DNA from: Deltaproteobacteria bacterium
Lineage (GTDB): Bacteria; Myxococcota_A; UBA9042; PHBI01
NCBI GenBank assembly: GCA_020632715.1
Contig: JACKFA010000004.1
Coordinates: forward strand, 758,190-822,189
Direction of reading: 5' to 3'
DNA: 64,000 nucleotides
Shown here one piece after another: positions 34,991 through 64,000 of the stretch. A program made the translations under genes and the position numbers. The notes under the pieces were generated by a model. The model did no database searches. It was not told where the DNA came from and was given only the letters and a program-made list of their open reading frames with translations. How positions within the stretch are numbered: the stretch's first letter is position 1; each line of letters starts with the position of its first letter.

Positions 34991-35146
34991 CCGGACCTCT
35001 GCGCGTGTCGATTGTGGAGACCACACCGTATCGCACACGAGAGTGTTGAAGTGAACGGTTCTCACATTTTCCGCCACGGTCCGCGTTTCCGCCCGCTCGC
35101 GGCCGCCCGGCTCGCCGGGGAGCGCGGCGCCTGCTATGCTCGCGGC

Positions 35147-35653: not shown

Positions 35654-35822
35654 CCTCTCGCGCGCGGACTCCGCCTCCCCGCGCCGCGCCGAAGCCGCCC
35701 GGCGCGAGGCTGCGCGCTCCTGGGTTCGACGACCGGTGACACCGACGCCGACGACGCCGTCACGGCGTCCGCGGCCGCGCGATATGGTCCGGATCTACGT
35801 CACCGTGCACGCCGGAGCCTCG

Positions 35823-38800: not shown

Positions 38801-39029
38801 GCCCGTCACGGTCACGCGCTCGGGCGCGGCGGTCTTCGACGTCGCGACCTCGGGGGCCGCCGGCGTCGTCGCCACCTACACCCAGGCGGCCGGGACGACG
38901 ACGGTCAGCAACGTCGCGCGCCTCGTCTACAAGAACCCGCCCGTGGCGGGCACGGGCACGGTGACGGTGACGGCGCCCGGCTTCATCTCGACGCTCGCGA
39001 CGAAGACGCGCCAGGTCATCGTGAACTGA
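35823..39029 (+). CDS. Large lipoprotein: conserved Cys-containing ~340 aa N-terminal domain (paralog of the 55154 gene), Gly-rich linker, then ~6 Big_2-like Ig-fold repeats.
   Basis: MSRLALVAACAALVAC lipobox. N-domain motifs YVGPCDAS, QGFFDVAV, FCSAKLDC, YWNVALGL. Repeated units such as IASGDPS..LLATSG..AASVELTY. Confidence 0.8.
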   Translation: MSRLALVAACAALVACGDAAAPGVGSPGVTVAIAPLTLDGVVDAEYRVRVAAGGEVVWERVLTSGAYGDGAGGVSYVGPCDASFATNDVTVTLLSLRDATGPLAAGSWSPPPPATKAAPCSPSADTRVDFDLTVARAARQGFFDVAVELDDVFCSAKLDCGATTAVADDLLLLQDPITGERATTAVLGFACTAGPESDAATTLYLDDVVIRCDGRPDTVVAVGAPGRVDLGTLPSANPDGYLFDAVVYAGEQASGGVVYWNVALGLDRAAFAASGACSLSTVGTASSGPLEGGATPAGATWPVIVWDVPLSDASGRVCTEHEVGDPGGRVVIDYRGPDVPEVFDRGRDAGGPVGGGGGGGESGGNIAFVPEAGPKTVGAGLEAPLTVLLPAPVDAPEGATITIASGDPSRLLLATSGATAGAASVELTYANGIQSHTLWIQGVPGAAGDVVITATRGGETSWQSVSVVAPMLHLEALAGDRRATAVDAIPDDTFVVQTGIPNPEAVIGFSVQRVSAAAGPLTVTIASSDPAVATVATASGAAATQTRTIAPNVYTTPLPLASGGLAARFPAPPVAGTTTITASAPGFTTATQALTVSVVATYTYFDDDLPTLLGGGLQVGIPIGLSDPSHGGRVATVTVSDPSIAVVSSSRTGAGGASVDLTYVNGDNLETVWFQGVPGATGTVDVLVTCPGFADSWGTIAVRPGTMDIEVLAPYQTVASTQTPADDPFRVRFGVLDAAGTTYTPQEVSGAVAPLAVTFALSGAAVGELYTATERGSAVVLAIPAGTIATGNTTGTGGVALDFFGPPPVQGTVTVSATAPGFAATALSSQTVQVSVSAATITFTTIPAKVGASFSETLIYNLSAAPTGGSTVVHFEVSDFSKAAVAPLDASIGGETLDVVVNSGGYRNIRIHGRRGATGSVTITATSPGYLPASTTVPIVQGYIAITGGWNASVTTTAGTPIADYRFSVGVGYSNTGTGINTNAVIAGTDAPLPVTVTRSGAAVFDVATSGAAGVVATYTQAAGTTTVSNVARLVYKNPPVAGTGTVTVTAPGFISTLATKTRQVIVN

Positions 39030-39173
39030 CCAGGCCGCTCCCGAACAACGGCGCGCTCACGGCACTTTTTTGGCTCTCGCGAACGATCGGTTTGCCGCGG
39101 TGGACCGTACCGCATGCGGCGGCTAGGATCGCCCAAACCCCCAAAACCATCCGCAGCGAGACGCGAGGCCCCC

Positions 39174-42100: not shown

Positions 42101-45100
42101 CGGCGCCGGCGGGCCGCTCTACCTCGAGGCGGCTCGCGAGGTGACGTGCATGCACTCCCTGGGCCGGGTGACGGGCGCCGGGATCGTCGCGATCAGCGCC
42201 CCTGGCGCGAGACGGGTCCTCGTCCGCGCGCTCGCGGCCTACGAGATCGAGGGCAGCACGGGCGCCCTGGCGATGCCGCTCCCGCCGATCCTCGCCGGCC
42301 GGAGCCGGGAGATGACGAGCCTCGGCACGAGCGCGCCGATCGTCGGGCGCGACGAGGTGCGCTTCACCGAGCCGACCTGGCGCTTCGCGCTCCGCCTGCC
42401 CGGCGGCGAGCGCGTCGTCTACCAGCCGGCGGTCTACCACGCAGGCCCGAGCGGCTTCTTCGGCGACCGCTTCGTCCGCGAGGGGGCGCCGCTCAGCGCC
42501 GCCGCGACGGGGCCCGTCCGCGTCCTCCGGTGGGAGGTCCGCGACGACGGGATCGGAACGCTCGAGACGACGCTCCAGGTGCGCCTCGGCGCGCTCGCGG
42601 ACGGGCTGACGTTCGACCTCGACGGGCGCCTCGGCAGCGCCGGCCTCTTCCTGTCGGTCCCCGAGCAGCGCCTCCCGGACAAGGCGCCCCCGAGCCGTGG
42701 CTGGCCCGATCCGTCGCCCTCGGACCCGCCGGGCGTCGTCTACTTCGTGAAGCTCGAGGGCGACGTCGAGAACCCGACCTGGTTCTTCGACGAGGAGGTC
42801 CCGCCCGCGCGCGTCATCCGGCTCAGGTCGATGATCGACCTCGGGCCGACCTTCCCGAGCCGCTGCGGGCCGATGACCCCGTTCGCCGCGAGCTGCTCGG
42901 GCACCATGGAGCTCCTGCCGTTGAAGCTCCGCGCCGCGTGCCCCTTGACCGTGATGAGCCTGTCGGCGCCGACCTGCCCGCGCCCGAACGAGGTGGGCGA
43001 CTGGGCCGTCGGGGAGGTCGCGCTCCGCTACGAGGGCGGCCGCGCCACGCTCGACGGGCGCGCCGTGGCGAGGACCGACGATCTCGAGCTCGTCCGCCGC
43101 GAGCTCATGCTGACGGCACCGATCGGGCTCAGCGGCGTCCTCGAGCGCCGCGGCGGGGTCCTCTCGCTCGGCGCCGAGCTCCGAGGGGTCCCGGTCAAGG
43201 TCAACAACGACCTCCACCTCCAGGGCGGGATCAGCGCGTTCTCCTATCGCTCCGAGCCCGTCGCCGCCTCGCTCAGGATCTCGTCGTCCGAGGCGCCGCT
43301 CGGCGCCCAGTTCGAGCGGGACCTCGACGGCTACCAGGCGTCGCTCTGCCTCCCGAACGGCACCACGCGCCCCGTGTGCGCGAACCCGTACGCCGACGAC
43401 GCGCGCAAGGCGCCCGTCAGCGCGGCGGGGACCGTCGAGATCCAGCCCGGCGACGCCGACCCGACGCCGGGCGGCGGCGTCTCCATCACCGTCGACCCGC
43501 CCGCGGACGACGACGAGGACGACCCGATCGAGCTCGGCGACGGGGAGTGCATGGACTACCCCGACGAGTCGCGCTGCCTCGCGTACGGCCTCGCCGGGCC
43601 GCGGACGGCCATCGTCCAGGACGCCCCCGCCGGGACCTACAAGCCACCGGCGACGGGCCCGCTCTCGACCGTCACGGTCGCGCCCGCGCACCCGGCCCCC
43701 GACGCGAGCGCCGCGACCGTCGACGCCGCCGCGGACGACGTCGGCGGCTACCTCGTCACCGTGGACCCGCCTCCGGGCGCGATCGTCGTCGACCTCGGCT
43801 TCCGCGCGGGCGCGTTCGGGCCGGTCGTCACCACGGTCCCCGGCGACGCGGCCGGCTCGGTTCGTTTCACGCCGACCCTCGAGCGCCTCGCGGCGGTCCC
43901 CCAGACGTCCGACCAGAACGGCACCGCGCGCGCGAGCGTCCAGCCGTGCGCGACGTTCGTGCGCGCCGGCGGCGGCACCCCGTCCGTGACCACCTGCGGC
44001 CCGTTCCGCGAGGTGAAGGCGCCCCGCGGCGCCGCCCCGAGCCCCCGCTACCACACCGTCGAGCGCGGCCCCACCGGTCGCGTCGAGGCCGCCGCGACGG
44101 TGCCCTCGGGAGACGGCGCGCCGTTCTCGCTCACCGTGCTCGCGCCCGCGACGGGCGTCGTCACCGTCGACGTGCCCGGCGTCGGGCCCGTCGTGGTCGA
44201 CCTGCGCGTCTCGGACGGCGGCGCGAGCGGCGAGGCGACCCTCCGCTACGGCCTCGACGCCGCGGCCGGCCGCCGGATCGACGCCGCCGCGTACGCGCGC
44301 GCCACGTCGCGCCCGCTCGAGGCGCTGTCGCCGCTCTTCGCGCTCGAGACGACCGCCGCGAGCGACGGGAGCCACGGCTACGCCTACGTGCTCCCGGACG
44401 ACCTCCCGACCGGGATCTACGACGAGGGGCAGAACCCCTACGCGACCGGCGACCTCGTGGCGATCATCTCGCCGCCGCCGACGCGGGCGCGGCTCGGCGC
44501 GGCCTGGAGCTATCGCCCGGAGCTCCTCATCGGCGCCCCGACGACGGTGACGCTCCGCGTCGCGGAGGGGCCGCCCGGCGTCGCGGTCGCGGACGGGCTC
44601 GTGACGTGGACGCCGCCCGCGACGTGGCCCGTCGGGCCCGTGACCATCGCGATCGTGGCCCGAACGGCCGGCGGCGCCGAGGCGCGGCAGACGTTCGAGC
44701 TCGCCGTGAGCGCGGCCGAGACGGCGCCGGCCATCGTGCGCCCGGCGCCCGTCCTCGTCGGGGCGACCGACGGCACGGCGTTCCGCGTCGACGGCGCCAC
44801 GGCGGTCACGGCGGCCGTCGTCGGCGGGCCGACGGGCGCGCAGCGCGTCGCGGTCGGCGTCCTCGCGGCGGACCAGGCGCCGAGCCTCCCGGGGGTGATG
44901 CCGCGCTACGTGCTCGACGCGGACGCCATCCGCGTCGCGACGACCGGGCTCGAGGCCCCGCGGATCGAGATCACGGCCGAGAACGACGCAGGCGCGACCA
45001 CGCTGGTCGCCCAGGTGCTCGTCCTCGATCGCGACGGGGACGGGCTCCGCGACGAGTACGAGCGCCTCGTCGGGACCGACCCCGACGCCGCGACCGACCC

Positions 45101-48100
45101 GGACACCGACACCGACGCGGACGGCCTCACCATCGCCGAGGAGCAGGCGCTCAGGACCCGCGACGACCTCCGCGACAGCGACGGCGACGGCCTCGACGAC
45201 CCTGACGAGGCCGCGCTCGGCGCGAGCCCGCGCCTCTCCGACAGCGACGGGGACGGCCTCGACGACGGCGCGGAGGTCCTGACGCACCTCACCCTGCCGG
45301 ACGTCGCGGACAGCGACGGCGACGGCGTCTCCGACGGCGACGAGGTCATCGGCGGCACGGACCCCACGGTCGCCCTCGACGAGGACGACGACCAGGCCCC
45401 GGACGACCTCGAGCGGCTCGTCCTCCACACCGACCCGACGAACCCCGACACCGACGGGGACACGCTCACGGACGGCGCCGAGGTCGAGCTCGGCACGGAC
45501 CCGCTGGTCCCGGACACCGACGGCGACGGGATCCTCGACGCCGACGAGGCCGCGCTCGGGCGCGACGCCACCGTCGCCGAGGAGGAGCCGCCCGCGCTCG
45601 TCGAGCCGGCGCTCCTGACCGGCACCTCGGCCGCGCAGGTGCTGCTCCCCTTCGAGGCGCGCAGCTTCCCGATCACCGTCGCGGTGGATCGCGACGGCGA
45701 CGGCCTCCCCGACGCGTTCGAGGCGCTCTACGGGCTCGACCCCGACGACCCCGCCGACGCGGCGAGCGACACCGACACCGACGGCCTCACGGCGCGCGAG
45801 GAGCTCGGCCTCGGGACCGATCCGACGCTCACCGACACCGACGACGACGGGGTCGACGACGGGCAGGAGCGCGCCGACGGGACCGACCCGAACGACCCGG
45901 ACGACTTCGACGGCGGCGGCGCCGTCGTCTCGCTCGACGTCGCGCCGGCGAGCGCCGTCGCCGTCTACCACGCGTACTTCGGCCCGCGCCGGCTCCAGCT
46001 CGCCGTGGCCGGCGTCAAGGCGGCCGGCACGCGCGTGGACCTGACGTCACCCGCCGTGGGGACGGTCTACAGCGTGGCTCCGGCCGGCGTGGGGGTCTTC
46101 GACGCCGATGGCGCCTTCGTCCCCGCCGCGCCCGCGAGCGACGACCCCGTGGACGCCGTGATCACCGTGACGGCCCGCGGCGCGACGGCCGACGTGCCCG
46201 TGCGGATCGCGCGCTTCACCCCGCGCGACGTCGGCGTGGTCGCGACGCCAGGCGCGGGCGGGCCGATCGCCGCCGTCCCGGGCGCGGACGCCGTCGTGGT
46301 CGCGGTCGGTGGCCAGGTGCAGGTCGTCGACGTCGCCGATCCGGCCACCCCGCGCGCGCTCGCCCTGACGACCGTCACCGCCGCTCCGATCGCGGCGCTC
46401 GAGCCCTTCGGCGACCGCGTGCTCGCCGTCGCCGGGACCGAGCTCGTCTCGCTCGCGGTGGATCCGGCGGGCGAGGTGACCGTCGCCGCGCGCGCGACGC
46501 TGCCCGCCGCCGGTCGCGGGGTCGCGGCGACCGCGTCGGGTGGCGCGCCGGCGGCGTTCGTCGCGACCGCGAGCGGCGCCGTCGAGGTGCTGCTCGACCG
46601 CGGCGAGGTCGCCGCGACCTGGTTTTCCGGCCAGGACCTCACCGCCGTCGCCGCGGTGCGCGAGCGCGTCGTGGGTGCGACCGCCTCGGGGGCCCTCCGC
46701 GTGCTCCTCCGGGGGCCGAACACCACGGTCGGCGCGGCCACGACGGGCCGCCCGACGACGGCGTTGCTCCACCTCGGCGGCGAGCTCGTCACCAGCTCCC
46801 GCGGGCAGGGGCTCGATCGCGTGCGCCTCGACGTGGTGCCGCCCGCGGTGCTCGCCCAGAGCGACGCGGCGTTCCTCCCGACCGGCCCCGTGGCGCGCTA
46901 CCGCGACGTCGTGCTCGCCGGCGCCGAGGACTTCGGCCAGGCGATGACCTACCACGGGCTCGGCCTCCCGGGCGCGCTGCCGTTCCTCGGCGGCCACGGC
47001 TACGAGCTCGTGCCGGACGGCTCGACCCGGGGCGTCGCGGTGCTGGGGCCGCTCCACGCCGCGGTGGTCGCCGACGAGCTCGACGAGCGCTGGGTCGTCG
47101 TGGCCGAGCACGACCTCTTGACCGACCTCGCCGGCGTCCCGCCGACCGTGGCCCTCCTCGAGCCGCGCCCCGGCGACGCCTTCGACGAGGGCAAGCGCGT
47201 GCTCGTCCGCGCCCGCGCGGTCGACGACGTCGCGGTCGCGCGCGTGACCTTCCTCGTGGACGGGGCGCCCGCGGCGACGCTCACGGCGCCTCCCTGGGAG
47301 GCGCGCGTGCGGCTCCCGGAGGTCGACGCGGACGGCAGCGCGACGATCGCCATCGTCGCGGCCGACGTCGGCGGTAACAGCGCCGAGGCCAGCGTCGTCG
47401 TGGGCGTGCGCGCCGTCACCGACGACACGGACGCGCCGCTCGTCGCGTTCGGCGCCCCGCGCGACGGCCTCACCGTGCCCGCGAGCTCGGTCGTGCCCGT
47501 CCGCGTCAACGTCGTCGACGCCTCGGCCATCCGCGCGGTCGTCCTGAAGGTGGACGGCGTCGAGCGCGCGGTCCTGACGGACGGCCCGCCCTGGGTCGCG
47601 AGCGTGCCGACCCCGGTCCAGCCGGCGTCGGCGACCGGTCGCTACCCGCTCCGCGCCGAGGTGACCGACGTCGCCGGGAACGTCGGCGTCGCCGAGGTCG
47701 AGCTCGTCGACGCGGGCATCGACCTCGTCGGCCTCGGCGTCACCGACATCGCCGCGGGCGACGGGGCGTACGACGGCGCCACCATCCTCATCCGCGGCGG
47801 GACGGTCGCGATCGACGGCGCCCACTCCTTCGCGCGCGTGGTCGTCGGCGCGGGGGGCGTCCTCACGCACCCGCCGACGGGCCTCTCCGGCGCGGAGCCC
47901 GGCCTCGACCTCACCGCCACCGCCATCGTCGTCGAGGAAGGCGGCGCCATCGACGTGAGCGGCAAGGGGTACCGCGGCGGCTGCGGCTCGGGCGGCGCGG
48001 GCTGCCCCGCCGGCACCTCGGGCCGCACGGTCGGCAACGTCGACGGCGTCCCCGGCACCGCGTCCGCCTCGCACGGCGGCGTCGGGCGCTCGACGGCCAC

Positions 48101-48203
48101 CGCGGCGGCTGCGACCTATGGCGAGCTGCTCGCGCCCACGGCGCTCGGCGCGGGCGGCGGCGCCGGCCTCGGCGCGGCGGCGCCGGCGGCGGGCGCGTGC
48201 ACC
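39174..48203 (+). CDS. Giant surface lipoprotein, intact part (>3000 aa). Contains (ADT)n linker, Ig-like/Big_2-like domains, Cys-rich segments, thrombospondin-type-3-like Ca-binding repeats, and the first beta-helix-like ~1 kb repeat. The frame continues, disrupted, to ~51398.
   Basis: MRGFLLRRALLGALLLSFVGC. Frame 0 is coherent to ~48200. Beyond that the sense is recoverable only by frame switching. Confidence 0.75.
39280..39525 (+). repeat. ~27 tandem copies of a 9-bp unit gacacSgcS encoding (ADT)n.
   Basis: Visible directly in the sequence; translates to DTADTADTADT…. Confidence 0.85.
45020..45900 (+). repeat. Thrombospondin type 3-like Ca-binding repeats (DxDxDGxxDxxE) inside the giant lipoprotein.
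   Basis: DRDGDGLRDEYE, DSDGDGLDDPDE, DSDGDGVSDGDE, DTDGDGILDADE and similar. Confidence 0.7.
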
Positions 48204-51200
48204 TCGTCGCGGACACCCTCACGCTCGAGGCGCCGTGCGCGCCAACGGCGAGGACCTCGGCGCCATCGGCGTGAGCGGCCACGGCGGCGCCGGCGGGAGC
48301 GTGCTCCTCGACGTCAGGACGCTCACGGGCAGCGGCGCCATCGACGCGCGCGGCGGCGACGGCGCCAGCGCCTCAGGCGCCGAGCACGGCGGCGGCGGCG
48401 GCCGGATCGCCGTGATCGCGGACGACGCCGCCGGCTACACCGGGCTCGCGAGCGCCGCGGGCGGCGCCGGGAGCGCCACGGCGACGGCGGGGCTCCCGGG
48501 CGGCGCGGGCTCGGTCGCCCTGTCCTTCGGAGGCGCCGCTCCCCTCGTCGTCATCGACGACGGCGGGGCCAGCGACGGCGCCGAGGGCGACGTCCTCGGC
48601 GACGCGGACCTCGCCGGCGCGGACGTCGTCGTGCGCGGATCGGCGCGCGTCCGGCTCGCGCGCCCGCTGTCGGTCGGCTCGCTGCGCCTCGAGGACCAGG
48701 CGCGGCTCGCGCACGGCGCGGCGACCGCGAGCGACGACGCGGTGGGCGTGGACATCACGGTGACCGGCACGCTCACCATCGGGAGCGACGCCGCCATCGA
48801 CGTGAGCGGGCGCGGGTACCGCCAGGGTCGCACCTTCGGGAACAGCGCCCAGAGCGGCCTCATCGCCGGCGGGCGCGGTGGCGCCTCGCACGGCGGGCGC
48901 GGCGGCGGCAGCTCGGGGGTCGTCTTCGGCGACCCGATGGCGCCGGCGACGCTCGGGGCCGGCGGCGGCTCCTTCGGCGGCTCCGACTGCGCGGGCGCCG
49001 GCGGCGGCCGCGTGCGGATCGTCGCGGGGCGCTCGCGCTCGACGGCGCCATCGTCGCGTCCGGCGCGCCGGGCGACGAGACGTGCCAGACCGGCGGCGGC
49101 GCCGGGGCTCCATCGACGTCACCGTCGGGCGCGCTCCTGGGCGATGGCGCGATCGCCGCGAACGGCGGCGCGGGCACCGTCGGGGCCTCGCGTCCGGCGG
49201 CGGCGGCAGGCGCGTCGCGGTCCGCTACGAAGACGCGAGCGCCTTCGACCTCGCGGCCATCAGCGCCTTCGGCGGGGCGGGGGCCGCGAACGGCGGCCCC
49301 GGCACGGTCCTCCTCGCGGAGGCCGGCGAGGCCCCGGTGCTGCGGGTCGCGAGCGGCGGGCTCACGGCCGAGCACGCGGCGCCGCCGCGCGTCCAGCTCG
49401 GCGCCTGGAAGCTCACGACGAGCGGGCTCACGGCGACCTCGTTCAAGGTGCAGGGCTCGAACCTCTGGGTCGGCGACTTCCTCGCCGGGACGCGCGTCGG
49501 GTTCGCGGGCACCGCCGAGACGTGGCTCGTGACGGGGGTCACGGCGGCCACGACGACGGTGCTCGTCGAGGACCGGACGCCCGACCTCTCGGCGGCCGGT
49601 CTCGTCCAGAACGCCGCTGCCATCGGGATCGTCGACCTCGGGGCGGTCCTCGACGTCGACGGCGCCTCGGTCGAGCTCGACGGCGAGTGGCGCCTCCTGG
49701 GCCTTCGCCTCGCGAACGGCGCCCGCCTCGCGCACGCGCCGACCGCGACCACGGTGGGGCGCGCGCCCTCGGGGCTCGAGCTCGCGGTCGAGGGGGACGT
49801 CGACATCGACGCCACCTCGGCGATCGACGTGAGCGGCCGCGGCTTCCTCGACGCGCGCACGCTCGGCGACTCGACCGACGGCAACCTCGCCGCGGGCGAT
49901 CGGACGGGCGGCTCGCACGGCGGCGTCGGCGGCGGCGCCGATCCCGGGATCCCCTACGGCGACGTGACGTTCCCGCTCGCGCCCGGCGCCGGCGGCGGCA
50001 AGGGGCGCTTCGGCGCCGTGGCCGGCGGCTACGGCGGTGGGCGCGTGCGGCTCGCGGCGACCGGCGACATCGCCCTCGACGGGCTCATCGCCGCGAACGG
50101 CGCGGACGCGCCAGTCACGGGCCAGCGCGACGGGGCGGCGGCGCAGGCGGCGCCATCGTCGTCGAGGCGGCGACCTCGCGGGCGCAGGAACGGTCAGCGC
50201 GAGCGGCGGGGCGGGCGGCCGGGTACGGCGGGCGATCCGGGCGGCGGCGGCAGCGGCGGGCGCGTCGCGCTCGTGTACGACGACGCGGCGGGCTTCGATC
50301 TCGACGGCGTCGCGGTCCTCGGGGGCTCGGTGGCGCCGGCGCAGGTGCTGCCGGGACCGTCGCGCGCCTCCCGCGCGGCGACGTCGGCCGGATCGTGGTC
50401 GACGACGGCGGGCTCACCGCCACGCTCGAGACGACGCTGGGCGTCCAGATCGGCCGCGCGCGCGTCACCTCGACGCCGCAGGCCCAGAGCCTCGCGCTGA
50501 ACGGCGGCCAGCCGCGCTTCCACCCGGGCTCGCTCGCGGGGCTCGAGCTCCGCTGCGAGGGCGTCGCGGGCAGCTTCACGGTCGTCGGCAACACGACGAG
50601 CGCGATCCAGACGGACCCGGCCGACGGCGACCTCACCGGCCTCCTCGCGAGCGGCGCCCGGTGCTTCGCGGACCGCGCTCTCGACGCCGTGATCGAGGTC
50701 ACGGGCGGCGCGCGTCTCGCCCTCGACGATCGCTTCACGATCGCGGGGCTCGTCGTCGACGGCGGCGGCGTCGTGACCCACGCCGCGACCGGCGTCGGGA
50801 CGAGCTTCGCCGACGGGCGGCTCGACCTCGTCGTCACGGGGGACGTCGTGGTCGCGGGCGACGGCGCCATCGACGTGAGCGCGCGCGGCTACGCCGGCGG
50901 CGGCGTGGGCGTCGGCGCGAGCGGGAAGACCGTCGGCAACGTCAACGGCTCGGCAGCCGGCGCGGGCGGGTCCCACGCGGGCGTCGGCGGCGGCGCGGGC
51001 GCGGCCGCGGTCTACGGTGACGGCGCGGCCCCCGTCACGGTGGGTGGCGGCGGCGGTCAGGGCGCGGTCGCGGCGGAGTCGGGCGGCCGCGGCGGGGGTG
51101 CCGTGCGCCTGACGGTCGGCGGCGAGCTCGCGCTCGACGGCGCCATCCGCGCGGACGGCGCGGCGGCCCTGGGCGCGGGCGGCGGCGGCGCCGGCGGCTC

Positions 51201-55153: not shown

Positions 55154-58100
55154 ATGCGCATCACCTCCTCGCTCGCCTCCCTCACCGGCCTGGCTCTCGC
55201 GCTCCTCGGCGCGGGCTGCGCCGGCGACGCCCCGACCCCCGGCACGCCGCTCGGCGGCGCGCCGCTGACGATCAACGTGGCGCCCTTGACCCTCGAGGGC
55301 GTCGCGGCGGCCGACTACCGGCTCACCGTCAAGAACGGCGCGCAAGAGGTCGTCTGGACGAAGGACGTCGCGTCGACCCAGTACGGCGACGGGCAGGGGA
55401 GCCTCGCGTACGTCGGCACGTGCGACGCGTCGTCGCCCGCGAACACCGTGGAGCTCACGATCCTCGCGCTCCGCGACGCCGAGGGCGCGGCGATCACGGC
55501 GTGGTCGAACCCGACGGCCGACGCGCCGCTCGTGAAGCCCCAGACCTGCGAGCCGAACGCCGACAACGCCGTCACCTTCGACGTGACCGTCGCGCGCAGC
55601 GCCGTGCAGGGCTTCTTCGACGTGGCCGTCACCTTCTCGGACCTCTTCTGCTCGGCCAAGATCGACTGCCGCGACGCCTTCCTCGACGGCCCCGCCGGCC
55701 GCGGCCCGACCGCCATCCTCGCGCTCGCGTGCACGGGCGACCCGGACGGCGGCACGCCGACCACGCTCTACCTGAACGACATCGTCGTGACCTGCACGGG
55801 GGAGGGCTACGGCGCGGTCGTCGACCCGTCCGGCGGCCCCGGCAACGTCACGCCCGCGTCGAACCCGGGGCCGACGCTCTATGGCGCGGCCGTCTACCGC
55901 GGCGACGAGCAGCTCGCCGGCAAGGCCTACTGGAACGTGGCGCTCGGGCTCTCGGCGCCGGCGCTCGCGAACGCCGGCACCTGCACGCTCACGACGCGCG
56001 CGACCGCCGCGAAGGGCGCGCTCGCGAACGGCGAGATCGCCGCGGGTACGGTCTACCCGTACATCGACGTCAGCGCGCCGATCCTCGCGTCGGGCGCCCT
56101 CTGCGGGAACACGGGGCTCGACACGAGCGCCGCGATCAGCACCCGCTACACCACGCCCGCGGGCGCCGCGCTCCCCTTCGCGCACGCGTACGAGCAAGGC
56201 GCCGCCGGCGTCATCGGCGGCGAGGGCGGCGGCGGCAGCGGCAGCGGCAACGCGCCGACGGACGCGCTCCTCGCGAGCGACACGCCGCTCGCGCGGGCGG
56301 CGCTGGTCGCCGGCACGCTCGCGACGCCGGGCGCGGCGCCCGCGCTCGAGGCCGCGGGGGCGGTGACGTACGGCGCGTCGACCCCGCTCACGCCGGCGGC
56401 CGGCGGGATCACGGCCACAGCCGGGAGCGCGCCCGCGGTCGACGCGGCGGCGGTCGTCGACACGACGGCGCCCTTCACGGCGACCCTCTCGGTGTCGGCG
56501 ACGTTCGCGTCGGGCACCCCGCGGTGCGCGTTCGAGGCGCCGTACGACGGCGTCGCCTGTGTGCTCGACGGGAGCGGGCAGGGCACGGCGACCCTCGCGA
56601 GCACGGCGCTCGTCCCCGGCGAGACGCTCGTGGCCGACGTCTTCGCGCAGGAGACCCCCGCGGACGTCGCGCAGACCAACGCCCTCGCGACGAGCGTGCT
56701 CGCCTACCGGCAGGTGGCGAGCTTCAACGACGTGCCGAGCGACGAGGTGTACGCGTCGCTGGTCGCGCCGGACGGCAAGGTCTACTTCAACGCGCGCGCG
56801 TCGACGACGGAGACCCGCGAGCTCTTCGTCTACGACCCGAGCGCGCCCGGGAGCGGCGTGACGCGGGTCGCCGACGTGCTGCCCGGCGCGAACGACGGCG
56901 CGACCCCGCTCGCGGTCACGCCGGGCTACGTCTACTTCGTCGCGAGCGCGACGGCGGGGGGCACGAACCACCTGTACATCCACGACATCGCCGCCGGGAC
57001 GACGCGGGAGCTGCTCGACATCGACGACGTCGCCGCGAACGCGGTCGTGCTGCCGTGGGGCGACGAGGTGATCTTCGTGCGCGACGGCTCCGACTTCGTG
57101 TTCCACTACGATCCCGTGGGCGACACGCTGACCCCGGTGTCGCTCACCTACGTCAACGCGATCTACGGCAGCGATCAGCGCGGCATCGCGCTCGTGAACG
57201 GCGTCGCGTACTTCATCGCGTCCGGCACGGACGGGTCGTGGTCCGGGAACTACCTGTGGGCGTACGACCTCGCCTCGGGCGTGCTGACTCAGAAGCTCGA
57301 CGCCCACGCGCCGATGAACCTCGTGGTCCGCGGCGGCACGCTCTACACGTCGTACTCGACCACGCCGACGTCGCCGGACGTCTACTCGACGCGCTTCTTC
57401 TTCAGGAACGCGGGCTCCGGGTGGGTGCGCCTCTCGGACGGGTTCGTCGCGATCCAGTGCTCCGGCAACGACGCCGGCTTCGTCGAGGACGGCACGAACC
57501 TCTACGTCGCCGGCGCCCTGCCCGGGACCGCGAGCTCGTCGACCCCGTGCGGGACCCCGGCGATCGCGCGCATCGACACGACGCAGACGACCGGCAACGT
57601 CACGCTCCTCGGCGGCGCGACGGGCGTCGGCATCAACAGCCTCAAGGGGTCGCTGGTCGCCGGCGGCTGGCTCTATTACGTCAACTCCTCCTACCCGCAG
57701 GAGCTGCGCGCGGTCGACACGACCACGCTCCAGGCGGCGTCGCTCGGCGCGTCCCCGGCGAGCCAGACGGGGCCATTCGCCGTCGGTGGGCGCGTGTTCG
57801 ACGTCGCCGACTCGTCGCGCCCGCGGCTCCGCGAGCTCACCCCGTCCGGCGGGACGGTCGCGCTGAGCGACGTCGCGACGACGGTCGGCGCCGCCCCGAA
57901 CGCGGGCGCGGTCGCGTACTTCGCGGCGCTCGGGAACCTGCGCGAGTACGACTACGCGACGCTCCCGGCGACGAGCTCGGTCGCGGCGTCCGTGCAGGCG
58001 ACCGGCAGCGACGATCCGCTGTTCCTCACGGCCTTCGCGGGGGACCTCCACCTCGGCGCGCGCTACGACGGCGACGTCGTCCACACGGCGACCTACCGCG

Positions 58101-59065
58101 TCGCCTCGGCCGACGGCGTGGTCACGCCGCTCCCGACGAGCAGCGGCTACGCGCTCGGCGTCGGGCAGGAGGGGGTCTACTACCGCACGGCGAGCGGGCC
58201 CGCGCGCTGGGACGGCGTGACGATGACGCCGCTCGGCCTCGGCGCGTACGACCTCGTGAGCGTCGCGACCGACGGCGTGACCACGTGGGCGCTGACCGCG
58301 GACGCAGGCCAATACTACCTCAGCGCCTTCGACGAGCTCACGGGGGCGCTCACGCCGATCGTCGCGTTCGCCGCCACCGAGCAGCCGTCGTCGCTCCTCG
58401 TCGCGGGCGGGAAGGTGTTCGTCGTCGTCAACGACAACGACCTCTTCACCGCGAGCCTCTGGGTCTACACCCCGGCGGCGCCGACGCCGACGTTCACGCA
58501 GGTCACGACGTCGGGCGGGGCGATCTCCTGGGACCAGGTGCAGTCGCCGAGGGTCGGCCCGGACGGGGCCATCTACTTCGCGGACTACGACGACCACGGC
58601 GGCGCCTCGATCTTCGCGACGGACGGCGCCACGGTGAGGGAGGTCGTCCCGTCGACCGACTTCGAGTACCTCGGCCTCCAGTCGGTGGTGGGCGCCGGCG
58701 CGTTCACCTACGTCGGCGTCTCGAACGGCATCTACCGCTGGGATGGCGCGAGCGCGACGCTCATCGCGCCGGGCGCGAGCAGCGCGGCGCTCGAGAGCTA
58801 CGGTGGGCACCTGTATGCGCTCGTGTCCCAGATCCAGGCCTCGGCGGACCCCGGCGCGTGGACGCGGCGCGGCCTCTACCGCCTCGGCGACCAGGGCTGG
58901 GAGCTGCTCGTGGAGGCGCCGGCGTACGGCGGCGTCGCGGCGATGGCCGTCGCGGGCGACCTCCTCTACCTGCGCCTCCCCGACGCGGCCGGGAACGCGA
59001 AGCTCTACGCCCTCTGCGACGCGGCGACCGGCTGCGACCCGACGACGGTGCTCTCGGCGCCGTGA
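55154..59065 (+). CDS. Large lipoprotein paralogous in its N-terminal ~340 aa domain to the 35823 gene; C-terminal beta-propeller-like repeats.
   Basis: MRITSSLASLTGLALALLGAGC lipobox. Shared N-domain motifs YVGTCDAS, QGFFDVAV, FCSAKIDC, YWNVALGL. Confidence 0.8.
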   Translation: MRITSSLASLTGLALALLGAGCAGDAPTPGTPLGGAPLTINVAPLTLEGVAAADYRLTVKNGAQEVVWTKDVASTQYGDGQGSLAYVGTCDASSPANTVELTILALRDAEGAAITAWSNPTADAPLVKPQTCEPNADNAVTFDVTVARSAVQGFFDVAVTFSDLFCSAKIDCRDAFLDGPAGRGPTAILALACTGDPDGGTPTTLYLNDIVVTCTGEGYGAVVDPSGGPGNVTPASNPGPTLYGAAVYRGDEQLAGKAYWNVALGLSAPALANAGTCTLTTRATAAKGALANGEIAAGTVYPYIDVSAPILASGALCGNTGLDTSAAISTRYTTPAGAALPFAHAYEQGAAGVIGGEGGGGSGSGNAPTDALLASDTPLARAALVAGTLATPGAAPALEAAGAVTYGASTPLTPAAGGITATAGSAPAVDAAAVVDTTAPFTATLSVSATFASGTPRCAFEAPYDGVACVLDGSGQGTATLASTALVPGETLVADVFAQETPADVAQTNALATSVLAYRQVASFNDVPSDEVYASLVAPDGKVYFNARASTTETRELFVYDPSAPGSGVTRVADVLPGANDGATPLAVTPGYVYFVASATAGGTNHLYIHDIAAGTTRELLDIDDVAANAVVLPWGDEVIFVRDGSDFVFHYDPVGDTLTPVSLTYVNAIYGSDQRGIALVNGVAYFIASGTDGSWSGNYLWAYDLASGVLTQKLDAHAPMNLVVRGGTLYTSYSTTPTSPDVYSTRFFFRNAGSGWVRLSDGFVAIQCSGNDAGFVEDGTNLYVAGALPGTASSSTPCGTPAIARIDTTQTTGNVTLLGGATGVGINSLKGSLVAGGWLYYVNSSYPQELRAVDTTTLQAASLGASPASQTGPFAVGGRVFDVADSSRPRLRELTPSGGTVALSDVATTVGAAPNAGAVAYFAALGNLREYDYATLPATSSVAASVQATGSDDPLFLTAFAGDLHLGARYDGDVVHTATYRVASADGVVTPLPTSSGYALGVGQEGVYYRTASGPARWDGVTMTPLGLGAYDLVSVATDGVTTWALTADAGQYYLSAFDELTGALTPIVAFAATEQPSSLLVAGGKVFVVVNDNDLFTASLWVYTPAAPTPTFTQVTTSGGAISWDQVQSPRVGPDGAIYFADYDDHGGASIFATDGATVREVVPSTDFEYLGLQSVVGAGAFTYVGVSNGIYRWDGASATLIAPGASSAALESYGGHLYALVSQIQASADPGAWTRRGLYRLGDQGWELLVEAPAYGGVAAMAVAGDLLYLRLPDAAGNAKLYALCDAATGCDPTTVLSAP

Positions 59066-59075
59066 TCGGGTCGGA

Positions 59076-59090
59076 GTGAACGGCGTTCAC
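59076..59090. promoter_or_regulatory. Perfect palindrome GTGAACGGCGTTCAC, between the convergent 3' ends of the 55154 lipoprotein gene and the kinase gene.
   Basis: Read directly from the sequence. It is intergenic and recurs at 60436. Confidence 0.4.
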
Positions 59091-59129
59091 GACGGGGTGC
59101 GCGGTCGGCCGCGCCCCCGCCGCCATCGC

Positions 59130-60362
59130 TCAGAAGAGCCCGTCGAGGATGATGTAGAGGCCGATGGCGGCGGCGAGCCCCGCGAGCACCCAGCGCGCCA
59201 CGCGCGCCGGCGGCGGGCCCGTCGCCCCCTCGGCCTTCGCGGGATCCGACGCCGTCTGGAGGCGCGTCTCCGTGATCCGCCGGTGCACCGCGTCCGCCGA
59301 CACCCCCGGCAGCGACGCCGGGTCGCCCCCCGGCTCCACCGCCTGCATCCCGACCCGCGACAGCCGCCGGTTCGCCACCGGCCGCGGCGGCCGCGGCGCC
59401 GGCGCCGCCGTGTCCGTCGGGAGCGCCTCGAGCGCGCGCCTGAGCGCGTCCACGTCCTGGAAGCGCTCCGCCGGGCGCTTCTTCAGGCAGCGCTGGAGGA
59501 TCGCGTCGAACGCGCTCACGAGCGGCCGCTCGCCGAGCGTCTCCGCGAGCCGCGGCGGCGTCGCCGACATGTGCTGCGCCATGAGCCCGAGCGCCGTCGG
59601 CGACATGAACACCGGGCGCCCGGTCGCGAGGTGGAACATGGTCGCGCCGAGGCCATAGATGTCCGACGCCACGGAGACGCCGCGCCCGTCGATCTGCTCG
59701 GGGCTCATGGTCAAGAGGCTCCCGACCGCGGCGCCCTCGCGCGTGAGCTGGGCCGCGCCCGCGTCGACCGGCTTCACGATGCCGAAGTCGAGCACCGTCA
59801 GCCACTCGTCGCCGTCCGCGCGCGTCGTGAGCGCGAGGTTCTGCGGCTTGATGTCGCGGTGCACGAGGCCGAGCGCGTGCGCCTCCGCGAGCGAGTCGCA
59901 CGCGTGCACCGCGAGCTTCCTGACGCGCGGCAGGTCGAGCTTCCCGTCGGTCCCGAGCACGTCCGCGAGCGTCCGTCCGCCGAGGAACTCCATCACCATG
60001 TAGAGCGTGCCGTCGGGCAGCTCCCCCGAGTCGTGCACGGTCACCGTGTGCGGGCTCTTCAGCTGCGCCGTGACCTCCGCCTCGCGCACGAAGCGCTCCC
60101 GCAGGAGCTTCGCCCCGTCGCCGCGGATCCGCATCGTCTTGATGGCGACCTCGCGGTTCACCCGCCGCTGCCACGCCTTGTAGACCGTGCCCATGCCGCC
60201 CTCGCCGACGACGTCGAGCACGATGTAGCGCTCGTCGACGAGGACCCCGATGAGCGGGTCCTTCTCGGCGTCCCCGAGGCGCAGGAGCGCGCGATCCCCG
60301 TGGTCCGGACAGCGCGTCGCGTCCGCGGGGAACCGCCGCCCGCACTGAGGGCAGATCCACAT
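59130..60362 (-). CDS. Ser/Thr protein kinase with N-terminal zinc ribbon and a C-terminal TM anchor.
   Basis: CPQCGRRFPADATRCPDHG zinc ribbon. Kinase motifs GEGGMGTVYKA, HRDIKPQN, DFG, SPE. Confidence 0.85.
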   Translation of the reverse strand: MWICPQCGRRFPADATRCPDHGDRALLRLGDAEKDPLIGVLVDERYIVLDVVGEGGMGTVYKAWQRRVNREVAIKTMRIRGDGAKLLRERFVREAEVTAQLKSPHTVTVHDSGELPDGTLYMVMEFLGGRTLADVLGTDGKLDLPRVRKLAVHACDSLAEAHALGLVHRDIKPQNLALTTRADGDEWLTVLDFGIVKPVDAGAAQLTREGAAVGSLLTMSPEQIDGRGVSVASDIYGLGATMFHLATGRPVFMSPTALGLMAQHMSATPPRLAETLGERPLVSAFDAILQRCLKKRPAERFQDVDALRRALEALPTDTAAPAPRPPRPVANRRLSRVGMQAVEPGGDPASLPGVSADAVHRRITETRLQTASDPAKAEGATGPPPARVARWVLAGLAAAIGLYIILDGLF

Positions 60363-60435
60363 GGCGCCTACCTTAGCGCGACGCGTGCAGCCCAGAAACA
60401 GCGAAGCGCCCGCGGTCTCCCGGGGGCGCTTCGGC

Positions 60436-60450
60436 GTGAACGACGTTCAC
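60436..60450. promoter_or_regulatory. Perfect palindrome GTGAACGACGTTCAC, upstream of the kinase gene and downstream of the small secreted protein gene.
   Basis: Read directly from the sequence. Second copy of the 7-N-7 palindrome. Confidence 0.4.
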
Positions 60451-60452
60451 TC

Positions 60453-60470
60453 GGCCTCGCAGGCGAGGCC
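60453..60470 (-). terminator. GC-rich hairpin GGCCTCGC-ag-GCGAGGCC immediately after the stop of the 60478 gene on the minus strand.
   Basis: 8-bp inverted repeat, visible in the sequence. No U-tract. Confidence 0.3.
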
Positions 60471-60477
60471 GGAGGGC

Positions 60478-60921
60478 TCAGATCTTCGTGAACTTCCAGG
60501 TCTTGCCGTCCTTCTTCAGGTAGAAGGGGCGCGGCATGCCCTTCGGGTCGCACTCGATGAAGATCTTCAGCGAGTCGTCCTTGTCGACGTCGCCGTCGAC
60601 CTTCGTCACGAGGAGCTTCCCGCCGTCCTTCAGGCACTTCGGCGCGAGCCGCTGGAGCGCCGGCAGGTTGTACTTCTCGACGCTGCGCCAGGCGTTGTCG
60701 TTGTAGCAGAGGTCGCCCGTGTGGCAGTACGCCTTCTTCCAGGCGTCGAACTTGCCGTCCTTGATGAGCTTCAGCCCCTCGGCGATCGAGTAGTAGACCG
60801 TGCCCTCCTTGGGTGTGACGGTCTCGCCGTCCGCGGCCATCGCCGTCGCGGCGAAGCCGAGGACGCCGAAGGCGAGGAGGGCTGCGAGGAACGGGCGGAA
60901 GCGGCGGGTGAGGTGACGCAT
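60478..60921 (-). CDS. Small secreted Lys-rich, Cys-containing protein, ~147 aa.
   Basis: Signal peptide MRHLTRRFRPFLAALLAFGVLGFAATAMA from an internal Met of track ORF 60478..60996. Four Cys. Lysines use the GC-rich AAG codon, so it looks native. Confidence 0.6.
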   Translation of the reverse strand: MRHLTRRFRPFLAALLAFGVLGFAATAMAADGETVTPKEGTVYYSIAEGLKLIKDGKFDAWKKAYCHTGDLCYNDNAWRSVEKYNLPALQRLAPKCLKDGGKLLVTKVDGDVDKDDSLKIFIECDPKGMPRPFYLKKDGKTWKFTKI

Positions 60922-61005
60922 GCGTGCTCTCCGGTGCGGCGGCAGGTCGTGGGTTCTCGGGACGGGCGAATGAAAGCACGAATCGAACCCGCCCACAAAC
61001 CCGGG

Positions 61006-62409
61006 CTATTCCTGCCCGTCGGCGGGTCGGCGCAGGACCACGACGTCCCGCCCGCGGACCCCGCCGACGACGAGCGCGCCGTCGGGATCGAAGCGCAGGA
61101 GCGTCACCGCGTCGAGCCCCTCGGCCACCGCGATCCCGTCCCGCTCGACGCGCCACGCCGCGCCCGGCGCGCGCTGCACGGCGGCCGCCCGGTGCGCGCC
61201 GTCGGCCGAGATCGCGACCGACGCGATCGCCGCGAGCGGGTCGCTCGGCTGCCCCGCGACGCGCGGCGCGAGCTCCCAGCGGTCCGTCCCGCCCGCTGAC
61301 ACCGCCGCCACCGCGCTCTCCCCGTCCGCCGCGATCGCGACGTCGCCCACCCGCGCGAACCCCGGCCCCACGCTCCCGCCGATGACGACGTGGCTCCCGC
61401 TCGCGTCGCGCGTCGTGAAGACCAGCGTGCGCCCGTCCGGCGCGACCAGCGGCGCCCCTCGCGGTCGGAAGGCGAGCGGCGTCGCGACGCCGTCCACGAC
61501 GAGCTCCCAGGCGCCGTCGCGGGCGCCCGCATAGACGAGCGCGCCGTCCGGGCGGAACACCGGCCCGACGGCCAGGTCCCAGCTGCGCTCGTCGAGGTCG
61601 CCGAGCGTCAGCGCGCCGCGCGCGTCGTCGCGGAAGTAGGCGACGCGCTTCCCGTCGGGGCTCAGCGCGGGCGCCTTCACGACACGGTGGATGGGGCCCG
61701 GCTCGCCGGCGACCACGATCTGGAGCCCGTCCTCGACCCGCGCGAGGTACGCGAGCGCCGACCCGTCGGCGGCGTAGACGAGGTCGCGGGCCTCGCGCAC
61801 AGGCGCGCCGATGACGCCGTCTGCCACGACGTGATCGGCGTCCCCGAGGCGCGCGACCCAGGCGACGTGTGGGCCCGCGACGACCGGCGCGAAGGAGGCG
61901 CGGTCCGCGAAGGGCCCGCGGCGGCCGTCCGCGACGACGGTCGCCTTGCCGGTGCCGTTCTCGGCGCGGTAGGCGACGTGGGCGAGGTCGTCCGAGAAGC
62001 GCACGCTGAACGGCGCGAGCACGAGGTCGTCCGGCACGGTGTCGACCACGCGTTCCCCGGCCGCCGCCACGGCCTCCGCCTCCGCCGCTGCCGCCGCCCC
62101 GGCCTCCGCCTCCGCCGCCGCCCCGGCCCCGGCCGCCGCCGCTGTCGCCGCCCGGCCTCCGCCGTCGCCGCCGCTGTCGCCGACGCCGCCCCGGCCGCCG
62201 CCGCCCCAGCCTCCGCCTCCGCCGTCGCCGCCACCACTGTCGCCGACGCCGCCCCGGCCCTCCGCCTCCGACGCTGTCGCCTCCGCGGTCGCCGCCGCGC
62301 CCTCCGGACCCCGTAGGGGCGGCCCTTGTGGCCGCCCGGCGTCGCTCCCGCGCCCGCACCCGCCGACGACGGCGAACGCCACCACGATCGCGGCGCGCCG
62401 CCCGATCAC
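61006..62409 (-). CDS. Beta-propeller lipoprotein with a Gly/Ala/Glu low-complexity linker.
   Basis: GTG start giving VIGRRAAIVVAFAVVGGC (lipobox). Repeats of DG..LAY / DGK.VAY. It is the coherent 3' part of track ORF 61006..63066. Start overlaps the stop of the upstream gene (GTGA). Confidence 0.6.
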   Translation of the reverse strand: MIGRRAAIVVAFAVVGGCGRGSDAGRPQGPPLRGPEGAAATAEATASEAEGRGGVGDSGGGDGGGGGWGGGGRGGVGDSGGDGGGRAATAAAAGAGAAAEAEAGAAAAAEAEAVAAAGERVVDTVPDDLVLAPFSVRFSDDLAHVAYRAENGTGKATVVADGRRGPFADRASFAPVVAGPHVAWVARLGDADHVVADGVIGAPVREARDLVYAADGSALAYLARVEDGLQIVVAGEPGPIHRVVKAPALSPDGKRVAYFRDDARGALTLGDLDERSWDLAVGPVFRPDGALVYAGARDGAWELVVDGVATPLAFRPRGAPLVAPDGRTLVFTTRDASGSHVVIGGSVGPGFARVGDVAIAADGESAVAAVSAGGTDRWELAPRVAGQPSDPLAAIASVAISADGAHRAAAVQRAPGAAWRVERDGIAVAEGLDAVTLLRFDPDGALVVGGVRGRDVVVLRRPADGQE

Positions 62410-63182
62410 TTCGGCGCGGACGCCCCGAGCGCCGCGTCCCGGTGCCGCGCGTAGGTCGCGACGCCCTCCTCGCACCCGGCCGCGTCTCCCGCCCCGAACG
62501 CCGCGCACCCCGCGAGCGCCTTCTTCCGCAGCGCCTCCGGGTCGCCGGTGACGTCCGTCCCGGCGAACGCCTGCGCCGCGATGGCCCGCGCCGCCTCGAG
62601 CTCGTCGCCCGTCGGCTGCGACCCGTCCGCCCGCGGCGCCGACAGGTCCCTCACGATCCCGAGCAAGAACCCGCGGTCCGCCGCGGTCAGCGTCGCGCCC
62701 GAGAAGGCCATCGCCTTGTCGACGCGCTCGCCCGCCCACTGCTGCGCCTGCGCCACGCTCGGCCGCGCCACGGCCCCCGCGCCGCCGCCGCTCGTGAGCG
62801 CCACCGCGATGAGCACCGCCGCCGCGATCGCCACGACCGCGCCGACCCACATCGCCGGCCCGCGCCGCCGCTCCCGCGCCGCCGCGAGCGACACGACCTC
62901 TGCCGGACCGCCGGCCGCCGCGGCGCCCGTGGCCGCCGCGCGCGCCGCCCACGCCTTCGTCTCCTCCCGCAGCACCCCGAGCCGCGCGAGCGCCACGCTC
63001 TCGCTGAGCGGCGCCTCCACCGCGTGCGCGAGCGCCGCGAGCTCCTGCTCGAGCCGGTCGAGCCACGGCAGGAAGCCGGCGGTCTTCGCCCCCTCCACGA
63101 CCACGAGCCCCGGATCCTCCTCCCCGTCGCCGAAGAGGTAGGTCAGGACGGCCTCCTCGAGGCGCGCGTCGACAGCCGTCAT
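62406..63182 (-). CDS. Putative anti-sigma factor (single-pass membrane protein).
   Basis: Lies 2 nt downstream of the ECF sigma gene. Cytoplasmic N-domain, TM helix MWVGAVVAIAAAVLIAVAL, periplasmic C-domain. No zinc-binding anti-sigma motif. Confidence 0.5.
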   Translation of the reverse strand: MTAVDARLEEAVLTYLFGDGEEDPGLVVVEGAKTAGFLPWLDRLEQELAALAHAVEAPLSESVALARLGVLREETKAWAARAAATGAAAAGGPAEVVSLAAARERRRGPAMWVGAVVAIAAAVLIAVALTSGGGAGAVARPSVAQAQQWAGERVDKAMAFSGATLTAADRGFLLGIVRDLSAPRADGSQPTGDELEAARAIAAQAFAGTDVTGDPEALRKKALAGCAAFGAGDAAGCEEGVATYARHRDAALGASAPK

Positions 63183-63183
63183 C

Positions 63184-63726
63184 TCAGCCCCCCGCCGCCG
63201 AGGGCTCTTCGAACCCCTCGCGCAGCTGCGCGAGGAGCTTCTTGAGCACGTAGTACGGCGACTTCGGCGGCCACCCGCACGACTTCTGCGCGGCGGGGAC
63301 GCTGTCGGTGGTCATCACGTTCGTGAGGAAGCAGCGCTCCTCGGGCGAGAGCTTCGCGAGCTGCTCCCGGAGCCGCGTCGAGCGCTGCTCGTCCTCGAGG
63401 AGCGAGTCCGCGAGCGGCGCCTCGTCGGGCGTCGGCCGCTCGAGGTCGTCGTCGCGCGCGTCCTCGAGGTAGGCCGCCTTCTTCCGCCCCTGATCGATCA
63501 TGAGGTTCCGCATGGTCCGGTACGCGAGCGCCATCAGCTGGTTGAACGGCCGCTCCCGCAGGCTCGCTTCGTCGTAGGCGTTCAAGAGCTTCGCGAGGGC
63601 CTCCTGCACGAGGTCCTCGGGGAGCATCCGCCCCGACTTGCCGCGGTTCGCCCCCGCGAGGAGGAGCCGCGCTCTCATCGCCATCTCGGCCTGCAGGTGG
63701 TCGAAGAACGGGTCGCGTCGCGTCAT
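63184..63726 (-). CDS. ECF-type RNA polymerase sigma-70 factor.
   Basis: Region 2 (LPEDLVQEALAKL…ERPF) and region 4 (LSPEERCFLTNVM). Start may be Met1 at 63759 or Met12 at 63726. Confidence 0.8.
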   Translation of the reverse strand: MTRRDPFFDHLQAEMAMRARLLLAGANRGKSGRMLPEDLVQEALAKLLNAYDEASLRERPFNQLMALAYRTMRNLMIDQGRKKAAYLEDARDDDLERPTPDEAPLADSLLEDEQRSTRLREQLAKLSPEERCFLTNVMTTDSVPAAQKSCGWPPKSPYYVLKKLLAQLREGFEEPSAAGG

Positions 63727-64000
63727 GGGACCAGTGCCAGGGGTGCTTCGGTGCGCCACCTTGGCACGTTCTCGGCCGTCCTGTCATCTCGGTCCTCCGG
63801 AGGCCGCCGCACGGCGGGCGCGTCGCGTCCCTCGTGCTCAGGGACGGCCGCCACCACGGCGGTTGAAAACGCGCGTCCTGATTCCCGAACGTGCGCCGAC
63901 GGGGGGCTCCGGTGTATGTGTCTCGGAGTCCAAAAATCGAAGCGTCCTGGCGATCAAACGCGCCCTGCCGCACAACTCACCGCCGCCCCCGAACCACTCC

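Follow-up and report, generated by a model that had tools for sequence, protein, structure and literature searches.

Two 15-bp palindromes bracket a Ser/Thr protein kinase gene in a 64,000-nucleotide stretch of DNA from Deltaproteobacteria bacterium (assembly GCA_020632715.1, contig JACKFA010000004.1, positions 758,190 to 822,189 of the forward strand), the whole of which is termed the window. Comparison of the window with one related lineage indicates that the pair arose recently, is specific to its lineage and has been kept by selection at the two borders of the kinase gene. The favored reading, which is given a little less than an even chance, is that the palindromes form a conserved pair of recognition sites for one DNA-binding protein with two-fold symmetry. 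The pair is a real, conserved and lineage-specific cis element, of an ordinary kind in an unusual placement.

Sequence, position and conservation of the palindrome pair

The pattern GTGAACGNCGTTCAC has exactly two matches in the window, palindrome 1 and palindrome 2 of Table 1, which confirms an earlier note on this DNA that reported two identical inverted repeats at these coordinates. The same note held that a recurrence of this kind exceeds chance, and this is borne out as no match is found in 100 dinucleotide-preserving shuffles and the composition-based expectation is ~1e-4 per window (8 G/C and 6 A/T specified bases at ~75% GC); its figure of 70% GC for the genome needs correction, the window measuring ~75%. 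Palindromes with 7-bp arms number 127 in the window compared with ~91 in the shuffles, and among those that recur only this pair contains A/T. The motif core is a 6-N3-6 arrangement, GTGAAC-NNN-GTTCAC, with the half-site centers 9 bp apart, and is relatively A/T-rich against the 75% GC genome. The looser core GTGAAC-N3-GTTCAC has no match in 1.44 Mb of unrelated loci. The copy counts given for the palindromes cover the 64-kb window and 14.7 kb of the related lineage, represented by contig L185.

Both palindromes are intergenic and lie one on each side of the kinase gene, as the earlier note had described, according to the open reading frames (ORFs) and to the gene calls of an NCBI contig from a metagenome-assembled genome. 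This 5.7-kb contig is 99.9% identical to the window and retains both palindromes, and in three contigs of the same species from other samples the upstream spacer including palindrome 2 is identical. The DNA belongs to an uncultured member of the Myxococcales, and a 1.04-Mb NCBI contig likewise encodes the kinase and the small protein described below. Palindrome 1 is placed 10 nt past the stop (59065) of a plus-strand gene encoding 1303 amino acids (aa), inside a 64-nt convergent gap, with 39 nt between it and the kinase stop codon (59130-59132), and is downstream of the kinase when read on the kinase strand. Palindrome 2 is placed 27 nt past the stop (60478) of a gene encoding a small protein of 147 aa and 73 nt before the kinase ATG (60362).

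Table 1. Features at and around the palindrome pair (window coordinates)
Feature	Position	Strand	Sequence or description
Palindrome 1	59076..59090	.	GTGAACGGCGTTCAC; on the kinase strand GTGAACGCCGTTCAC; center G
Palindrome 2	60436..60450	.	GTGAACGACGTTCAC; on the kinase strand GTGAACGTCGTTCAC; center A
G+C-rich hairpin and tail	60391..60432	-	GAAGCGCCC..GGGCGCTTC (60403-60432), then GCTGTTTCTGGG; matched by folding and by a terminator-like scan
Window-specific G+C hairpin	60452..60471	-	CGGCCTCGCCTGCGAGGCCG; an insertion separating palindrome 2 from the small-gene stop; not in L185
Window-specific G+C hairpin	59094..59117	.	GGGGTGCGCGG-TCGG-CCGCGCCCC; between palindrome 1 and the kinase stop; not in L185
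Ser/Thr protein kinase gene	59130..60362	-	410 aa; Pfam Pkinase, E=1e-37
147-aa protein gene	60478..60921	-	signal-peptide-like N terminus, without a Pfam family; conserved upstream partner of the kinase
1303-aa secreted-type protein gene	55154..59065	+	insertion of the window lineage between argC and palindrome 1

Among 5.8 billion proteins searched, one other lineage has a close ortholog of the kinase (P0002, 76% identical), the matches that follow being at most 57% identical, and a search with the small protein gives the same picture. The contigs of P0002 (L185-L188) carry both palindromes at the same two places. In L185 the upstream copy (GTGAACACCGTTCAC, 7053-7067) is located 5 nt past the small-gene stop and differs from palindrome 2 in the center alone, the arms being identical. 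The downstream copy (8396-8410) is located 8 nt past the kinase stop and is the same 15-mer, GTGAACGCCGTTCAC, as in the window. There it is widened to a 25-bp perfect palindrome (12-1-12, ACGTTGTGAACGCCGTTCACAACGT) occupying the 27-nt gap between the kinase and the stop of the convergent argC gene. The same arm sequence is thereby present at both sites in both species, with the 12 arm bases identical in all four copies, and only the three central bases vary (GGC, GAC, ACC and GCC) as expected for a spacer that is not contacted.

The surroundings of the two sites have diverged to different extents. Upstream, palindrome 2 and the adjoining terminator hairpin form a 62-nt block in which 55 of the 62 positions are identical to L185, with differences confined to the palindrome center, the linker, a C-run (an indel in the 5' arm of the terminator) and the tail, and the rest of the spacer is full of 22- and 24-nt indels. 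At the downstream site the 15-mer is unchanged between the window and L185, yet the sequence on either side of it defies alignment. On this side L185 has argC as the neighbor, whereas the window has an inserted gene of 4.2 kb and one more hairpin; synteny at the protein level places the insertion (55154..59065) exactly between argC and palindrome 1, with the palindrome remaining on the kinase side. Because both sites have been kept while their flanks carry indels and a different neighboring gene, the GTGAAC-NNN-GTTCAC core is under selection. The assignment of the downstream palindrome to argC as an element of that gene was rejected in view of its kinase-side position in the window and of the argC loci at 68-70% identity, which have neither the motif nor an adjacent kinase. 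A homolog of the small protein in L271 (63% identical) is directly followed by a different gene, and a genome-collection scan with the kinase protein, in which the generic peptide HRDIKPQN was dominant, gave no ortholog among the matches listed, the best being 37%.

The earlier note had also described a degenerate third copy at 35050, in a divergent promoter, and this claim does not survive. The match lies at 35051-35065 and departs from the 7-N-7 pattern at 3 positions and from the 6-N3-6 core at 2. With up to 2 mismatches to the core there are 4 matches in the window compared with 1.2 expected, two of the four being the true sites, and the orthologous upstream region of the related lineage has no such site. 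The third site was discarded as a near-chance match that is absent from the orthologous region.

Protein-bound, RNA-level and mobile-element readings

The sequence-level conservation of the two sites, their symmetry, their relative A/T-richness and the weakness of the corresponding RNA hairpin together suit a DNA-binding protein of two-fold symmetry. The sites are arranged as in an ordinary operator of a dimeric helix-turn-helix protein, and the putative binding protein is probably of that type; the tetO operator shares the 15-bp odd-centered 7-1-7 arrangement. In three of the four copies position 7 is complementary to position 9, showing that the symmetry reaches the center, and since no RNA hairpin can form pairs around a loop of a single base this suits a dyad in DNA.

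The two sites would mark both limits of the kinase transcription unit and not a promoter. Simple promoter occlusion is unlikely because neither site overlaps a recognizable promoter and one is placed in a 3'-3' gap, and the location of the sites at both borders of the transcription unit suggests blocking of the polymerase and/or looping. A protein encoded outside the 64-kb window would occupy both borders. Its most likely action there would be to stop RNA polymerase on its way from the convergent gene and from the sigma-factor operon upstream, to close a loop of ~1.35 kb through contact between the two bound dimers, or both, and occupancy of the borders would set the level of transcription of the kinase gene. 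The protein nature of the ligand, its binding to DNA and not to RNA, and the roadblock or loop mechanism are inferences. Phage lambda offers a parallel in its OL and OR operators, which flank cI-rexA-rexB and act by looping. As with the palindromes, identical sites bracket a gene-sized segment (1.3-2.4 kb), suggesting by analogy a possible mode of action; however, OL and OR are triple and overlap promoters, whereas the palindromes are single and have no promoter overlap. A bolder proposal, which is regarded as doubtful, is that the pair is a dedicated gene-bracketing device in which a symmetric protein at both borders insulates a single signaling gene against transcription running in from the ECF-sigma operon upstream and from the convergent gene, by means of roadblock terminators made of protein and/or the 1.35-kb loop. 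If true, such control would differ in kind from that exerted by promoter-proximal operators, and its motif matches no known regulon. If the sites bind a regulator, they would constitute a new operator motif in an uncultured myxobacterial lineage, linked to one Ser/Thr kinase in a conserved neighborhood of extracytoplasmic function (ECF) sigma factor, anti-sigma-like protein, secreted protein and kinase. One non-promoter site at each gene end would then offer a natural and simple setting in which to study control by a roadblock or a loop, with practical value limited by an organism known from metagenomes only and a motif confined to two lineages.

Several observations weigh against a protein-bound pair of this kind. 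Neither palindrome overlaps a recognizable promoter, the downstream one lies between converging 3' ends, an unexpected place for a classical operator, and the promoter context of the operator idea came from the third copy, which is a chance match. Pfam searches of ~30 window ORFs gave no candidate regulator apart from an ECF sigma factor. The databases searched hold two lineages with the motif, so that conservation amounts to one comparison: the orthologous intergenic regions, in which the earlier note proposed to look for conservation, have both sites in the 76% identical lineage, and the orthologous loci at 53-57% kinase identity are without the motif and have other G+C hairpins in its place. 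The upstream site, moreover, sits in a 62-nt block that is conserved throughout and resembles an RNA 3' end, and a role at the RNA level, the main rival, is compatible with the data of two lineages without covariation. The proposal of the earlier note that the palindromes are the operator of a dimeric regulator thus holds in part, as the pair is non-random, conserved and symmetric, and falls short in that it has no promoter context and no regulator gene in the window.

An RNA element is a serious rival, given that both sites follow stop codons and that the upstream block is like an RNA 3' end, and is considered possible though clearly less probable than the protein-DNA pair. The palindromes would then be read as a hairpin, GUGAAC-NNN-GUUCAC, in the 3' untranslated regions of the small gene and the kinase, recognized by an RNA-binding protein or a nuclease and serving 3'-end formation, processing between the two cistrons, or stability. 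In the kinase orientation the stop codons precede the sites by 5 and 8 nt in L185 and by 27 and 39 nt in the window, the upstream copy is followed after 3 nt by a conserved hairpin of the terminator type whose tail is T-rich, and the 25-nt palindrome of L185 (-14 to -15 kcal/mol) is the sole structure available to end both convergent transcripts. As in bidirectional intrinsic terminators, the sites are positioned after stops and in a convergent gap, and the L185 palindrome could serve both strands. The window 15-mers differ from such terminators, being weak, sequence-conserved, identical at two sites and placed beside stronger hairpins: folded as RNA, each reaches -5.8 kcal/mol with a stem of 6 bp closing a loop of 3 nt, neither is followed by a U-tract, and the whole spacers fold at -65 and -38 kcal/mol with neighboring G+C hairpins far stronger than the 15-mers, which therefore do not qualify as intrinsic terminators. 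A mere hairpin would not need identical arms at two sites in two species and would have no use for the complementarity of positions 7 and 9. Rfam has no family for the element, the best match (E=0.52) being far below the gathering score, and compensatory changes (0 of 23 predicted pairs) are uninformative with only two sequences. In a variant of the RNA reading, base pairing would join one copy to the other within a read-through transcript; such long-range pairing is thermodynamically possible, yet it requires complementarity alone and not sites that are self-complementary.

Compared with the RNA element, a non-regulatory origin in DNA is improbable, whether as a palindrome of the repetitive extragenic palindromic (REP) or miniature inverted-repeat transposable element (MITE) type, as the ends of a cassette, or as recombinase sites that invert or excise the kinase segment. 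Such an origin would account for identical inverted repeats flanking a 1.36-kb segment and for the breaks in synteny at the downstream site, where the kinase is followed by sodA in distant relatives, by argC in L185 and by the 1303-aa gene in the window. It is opposed by the copy number, with 2 copies in 64 kb of the window and 2 in 14.7 kb of L185 at orthologous positions, which is not that of REP or MITE families, and by the Pfam scans of the window ORFs, which detected no recombinase or transposase domain. The orientation of the kinase and its upstream partner are constant in all orthologous loci, and the same orientation is found in every contig of both lineages. An inversion or excision module would have a nearby recombinase, both orientations or an empty site, and core sites of ~26-30 bp, and these were not found at the locus; to our knowledge, arms of 6-7 bp around a center of 1-3 bp are too short for the core sites of recombinases. 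Recurrence by chance without function is effectively refuted, for although single 7-N-7 palindromes are common in G+C-rich DNA, the shuffles and the composition-based expectation given above, together with the retention of both copies in a second lineage within spacers that otherwise cannot be aligned, stand against it.

Comparison with known operators

Membership in a known regulon, either as operators of a BioQ-like repressor of the TetR family or as sites of a Rex-type redox repressor with unusual spacing, is judged to be a slim prospect, slightly more so than a mobile origin. BioQ represses the biotin genes of Corynebacterium and Mycobacterium and has the predicted box TGAAC-N3-GTTCA (PMC3398298; review PMC5640590). 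The palindromes have the same half-sites and the same 3-nt spacer as this box (PMC3398298). They differ from it in taxon, target genes and location relative to promoters, as BioQ is actinobacterial with boxes in the promoters of bio genes or of bioQ itself, whereas the host here is myxobacterial and the sites flank a kinase gene outside promoters. Neither site is upstream of biotin synthesis or transport genes or of bioQ; the neighbors are the kinase, a secreted protein, arg genes and a sigma/anti-sigma pair, and the Pfam scans of the window ORFs detected neither TetR_N nor a biotin-pathway family.

The Rex operator (ROP) is an 18-bp even palindrome, TTGTGAA-N4-TTCACAA, for example ATGTGAACGCGTTCACAA in Streptomyces (PMC5355995). 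It shares the GTGAA/TTCAC half-sites with the palindromes, and the downstream copy of L185, TTGTGAACGCCGTTCACAA (TTGTGAA-CGCCG-TTCACAA), has both full Rex half-sites (PMC5355995) around a center that is CG-rich as in the Streptomyces sites. The spacer, however, is 5 nt in all four copies (GTGAA-N5-TTCAC) compared with 4 nt for Rex, giving a 19-bp odd palindrome in place of an 18-bp even one, and the outer TT/AA flanks are missing from three of the four copies. The location differs as well, since Rex operators are expected in the promoters of rex, cyd, nuo, atp and fermentation genes and the sites here flank a Ser/Thr kinase gene. A comparison with known transcription factor sites, which the earlier note had suggested, thus yields a core and spacing equal to the BioQ box in a gene context that fits neither BioQ nor Rex, and because of these mismatches the sites are not filed under any known regulon. 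A likeness to parS, matS, CRP, LexA and Fur-type 7-1-7 boxes was rejected by inspection, the half-site order or the spacing being different.

Flanking signals, neighboring genes and occurrences elsewhere

The hairpin at 60403-60432 starts 3 nt downstream of palindrome 2 on the kinase strand and, together with the TGTTTCT that follows, has the G+C stem and U-tract of an intrinsic terminator; the whole feature (60391-60432) has the look of an intrinsic terminator serving the small gene. A promoter scan over 58800-61200 gave no sigma-70-like match. A possible -10-like hexamer is present 7 nt before the kinase ATG in both lineages, as TAAGGT in the window (60363-60385) and TAGAGT in L185 (7140-7163), which hints at a leaderless kinase transcript that would start downstream of the terminator. 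A similar hexamer, CAAGGT, precedes the ECF sigma gene and is likewise conserved (window ~63760-63790). An ECF-type promoter at the palindromes themselves, with TGAAC as the -35 element and CGT ~16 nt downstream, was rejected by inspection as no consistent -10 is present at the four copies.

Genes were picked from codon-position GC, translations, Pfam and the NCBI gene calls. The kinase has a Cys-rich motif toward the N terminus and a hydrophobic tail at the C terminus. Every orthologous locus, with or without the palindromes, has the small gene followed by the kinase. Farther upstream the minus strand encodes a PD40-repeat protein, an anti-sigma-like protein and an ECF sigma factor. The neighborhood of ECF sigma factor, anti-sigma-like protein, small secreted protein and Ser/Thr kinase (window 62409-63726 on the minus strand, 60478-60921 and 59130-60362) recurs in most of the orthologous loci examined (L185, L189, L192, L194 and L196), suggesting a sigma-factor signaling module that involves the kinase. 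The 1303-aa gene is not part of the palindrome element. It is one of several large insertions carried by the window, 14.7 kb of L185 mapping onto ~45 kb of it; these lie at 20397-26162, 33647-34990, 35559-49532, 55154-59065 and 61006-62400. The large secreted or repeat proteins that they encode include a 1922-aa protein bearing an adhesin domain and Dicty_CTDC repeats, the products of 1157-aa and 3501-aa ORFs and the 1303-aa protein, and a PD40-repeat protein is also encoded by the insertions. Two further genes of the window, for which no link to the palindromes was found, encode a protein with a PT-HINT (pretoxin Hint) domain (12339-13340, plus strand) and a HAMP-adenylate/guanylate cyclase (31566-33113, minus strand).

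A scan of a viral collection gave ~100 matches to the 15-mer, estimated as no more than chance for a collection of this size. In one family of phage contigs from IMG/VR (L004 at 11199-11305; L019, L041, L044, L051, L057 and L072) the exact 15-mer GTGAACGTCGTTCAC repeats with a 22-bp period inside an ORF of ~345 aa (L004 10732..11769, minus strand) whose N terminus is like that of a helix-turn-helix replication protein. The layout resembles the origin iterons of the lambda-O type inside an initiator gene and is unrelated to the kinase locus; by analogy, these iteron-like repeats suggest that proteins can read the 15-mer sequence.

A metagenome scan with the 19-mer TTGTGAACGNCGTTCACAA found 69 loci, nearly all of them low-GC marine contigs with tandem palindrome arrays. 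These were rejected as relatives of the element because they belong to an unrelated repeat family, and the few high-GC matches (L248 and L245) are without informative context. The marine contigs (about 60 within L199-L267, from JGI Ga0115008, Ga0233438 and Ga0209092) have 35-45% GC and few long ORFs and carry a 19-bp palindrome, TTGTGAACG[C/G]CGTTCACAA, in tandem arrays of 2-5 copies spaced 21-31 bp apart (for example L205 150-230 and 560-640). Segments of ~350 bp are bordered by the arrays, which terminate in gggcggagccgttcacaa and look like a repeat or transposon-end family of a marine, possibly eukaryotic, genome. A separate repeat is found just downstream of argC in L270 (~8975-9110, GCA_006226565.1), where two copies of an imperfect palindrome of ~45 nt, AAAATGTGA-N6-GGGGTCAGACCCC-N6-TCACACTTT, have a REP- or MITE-like appearance.

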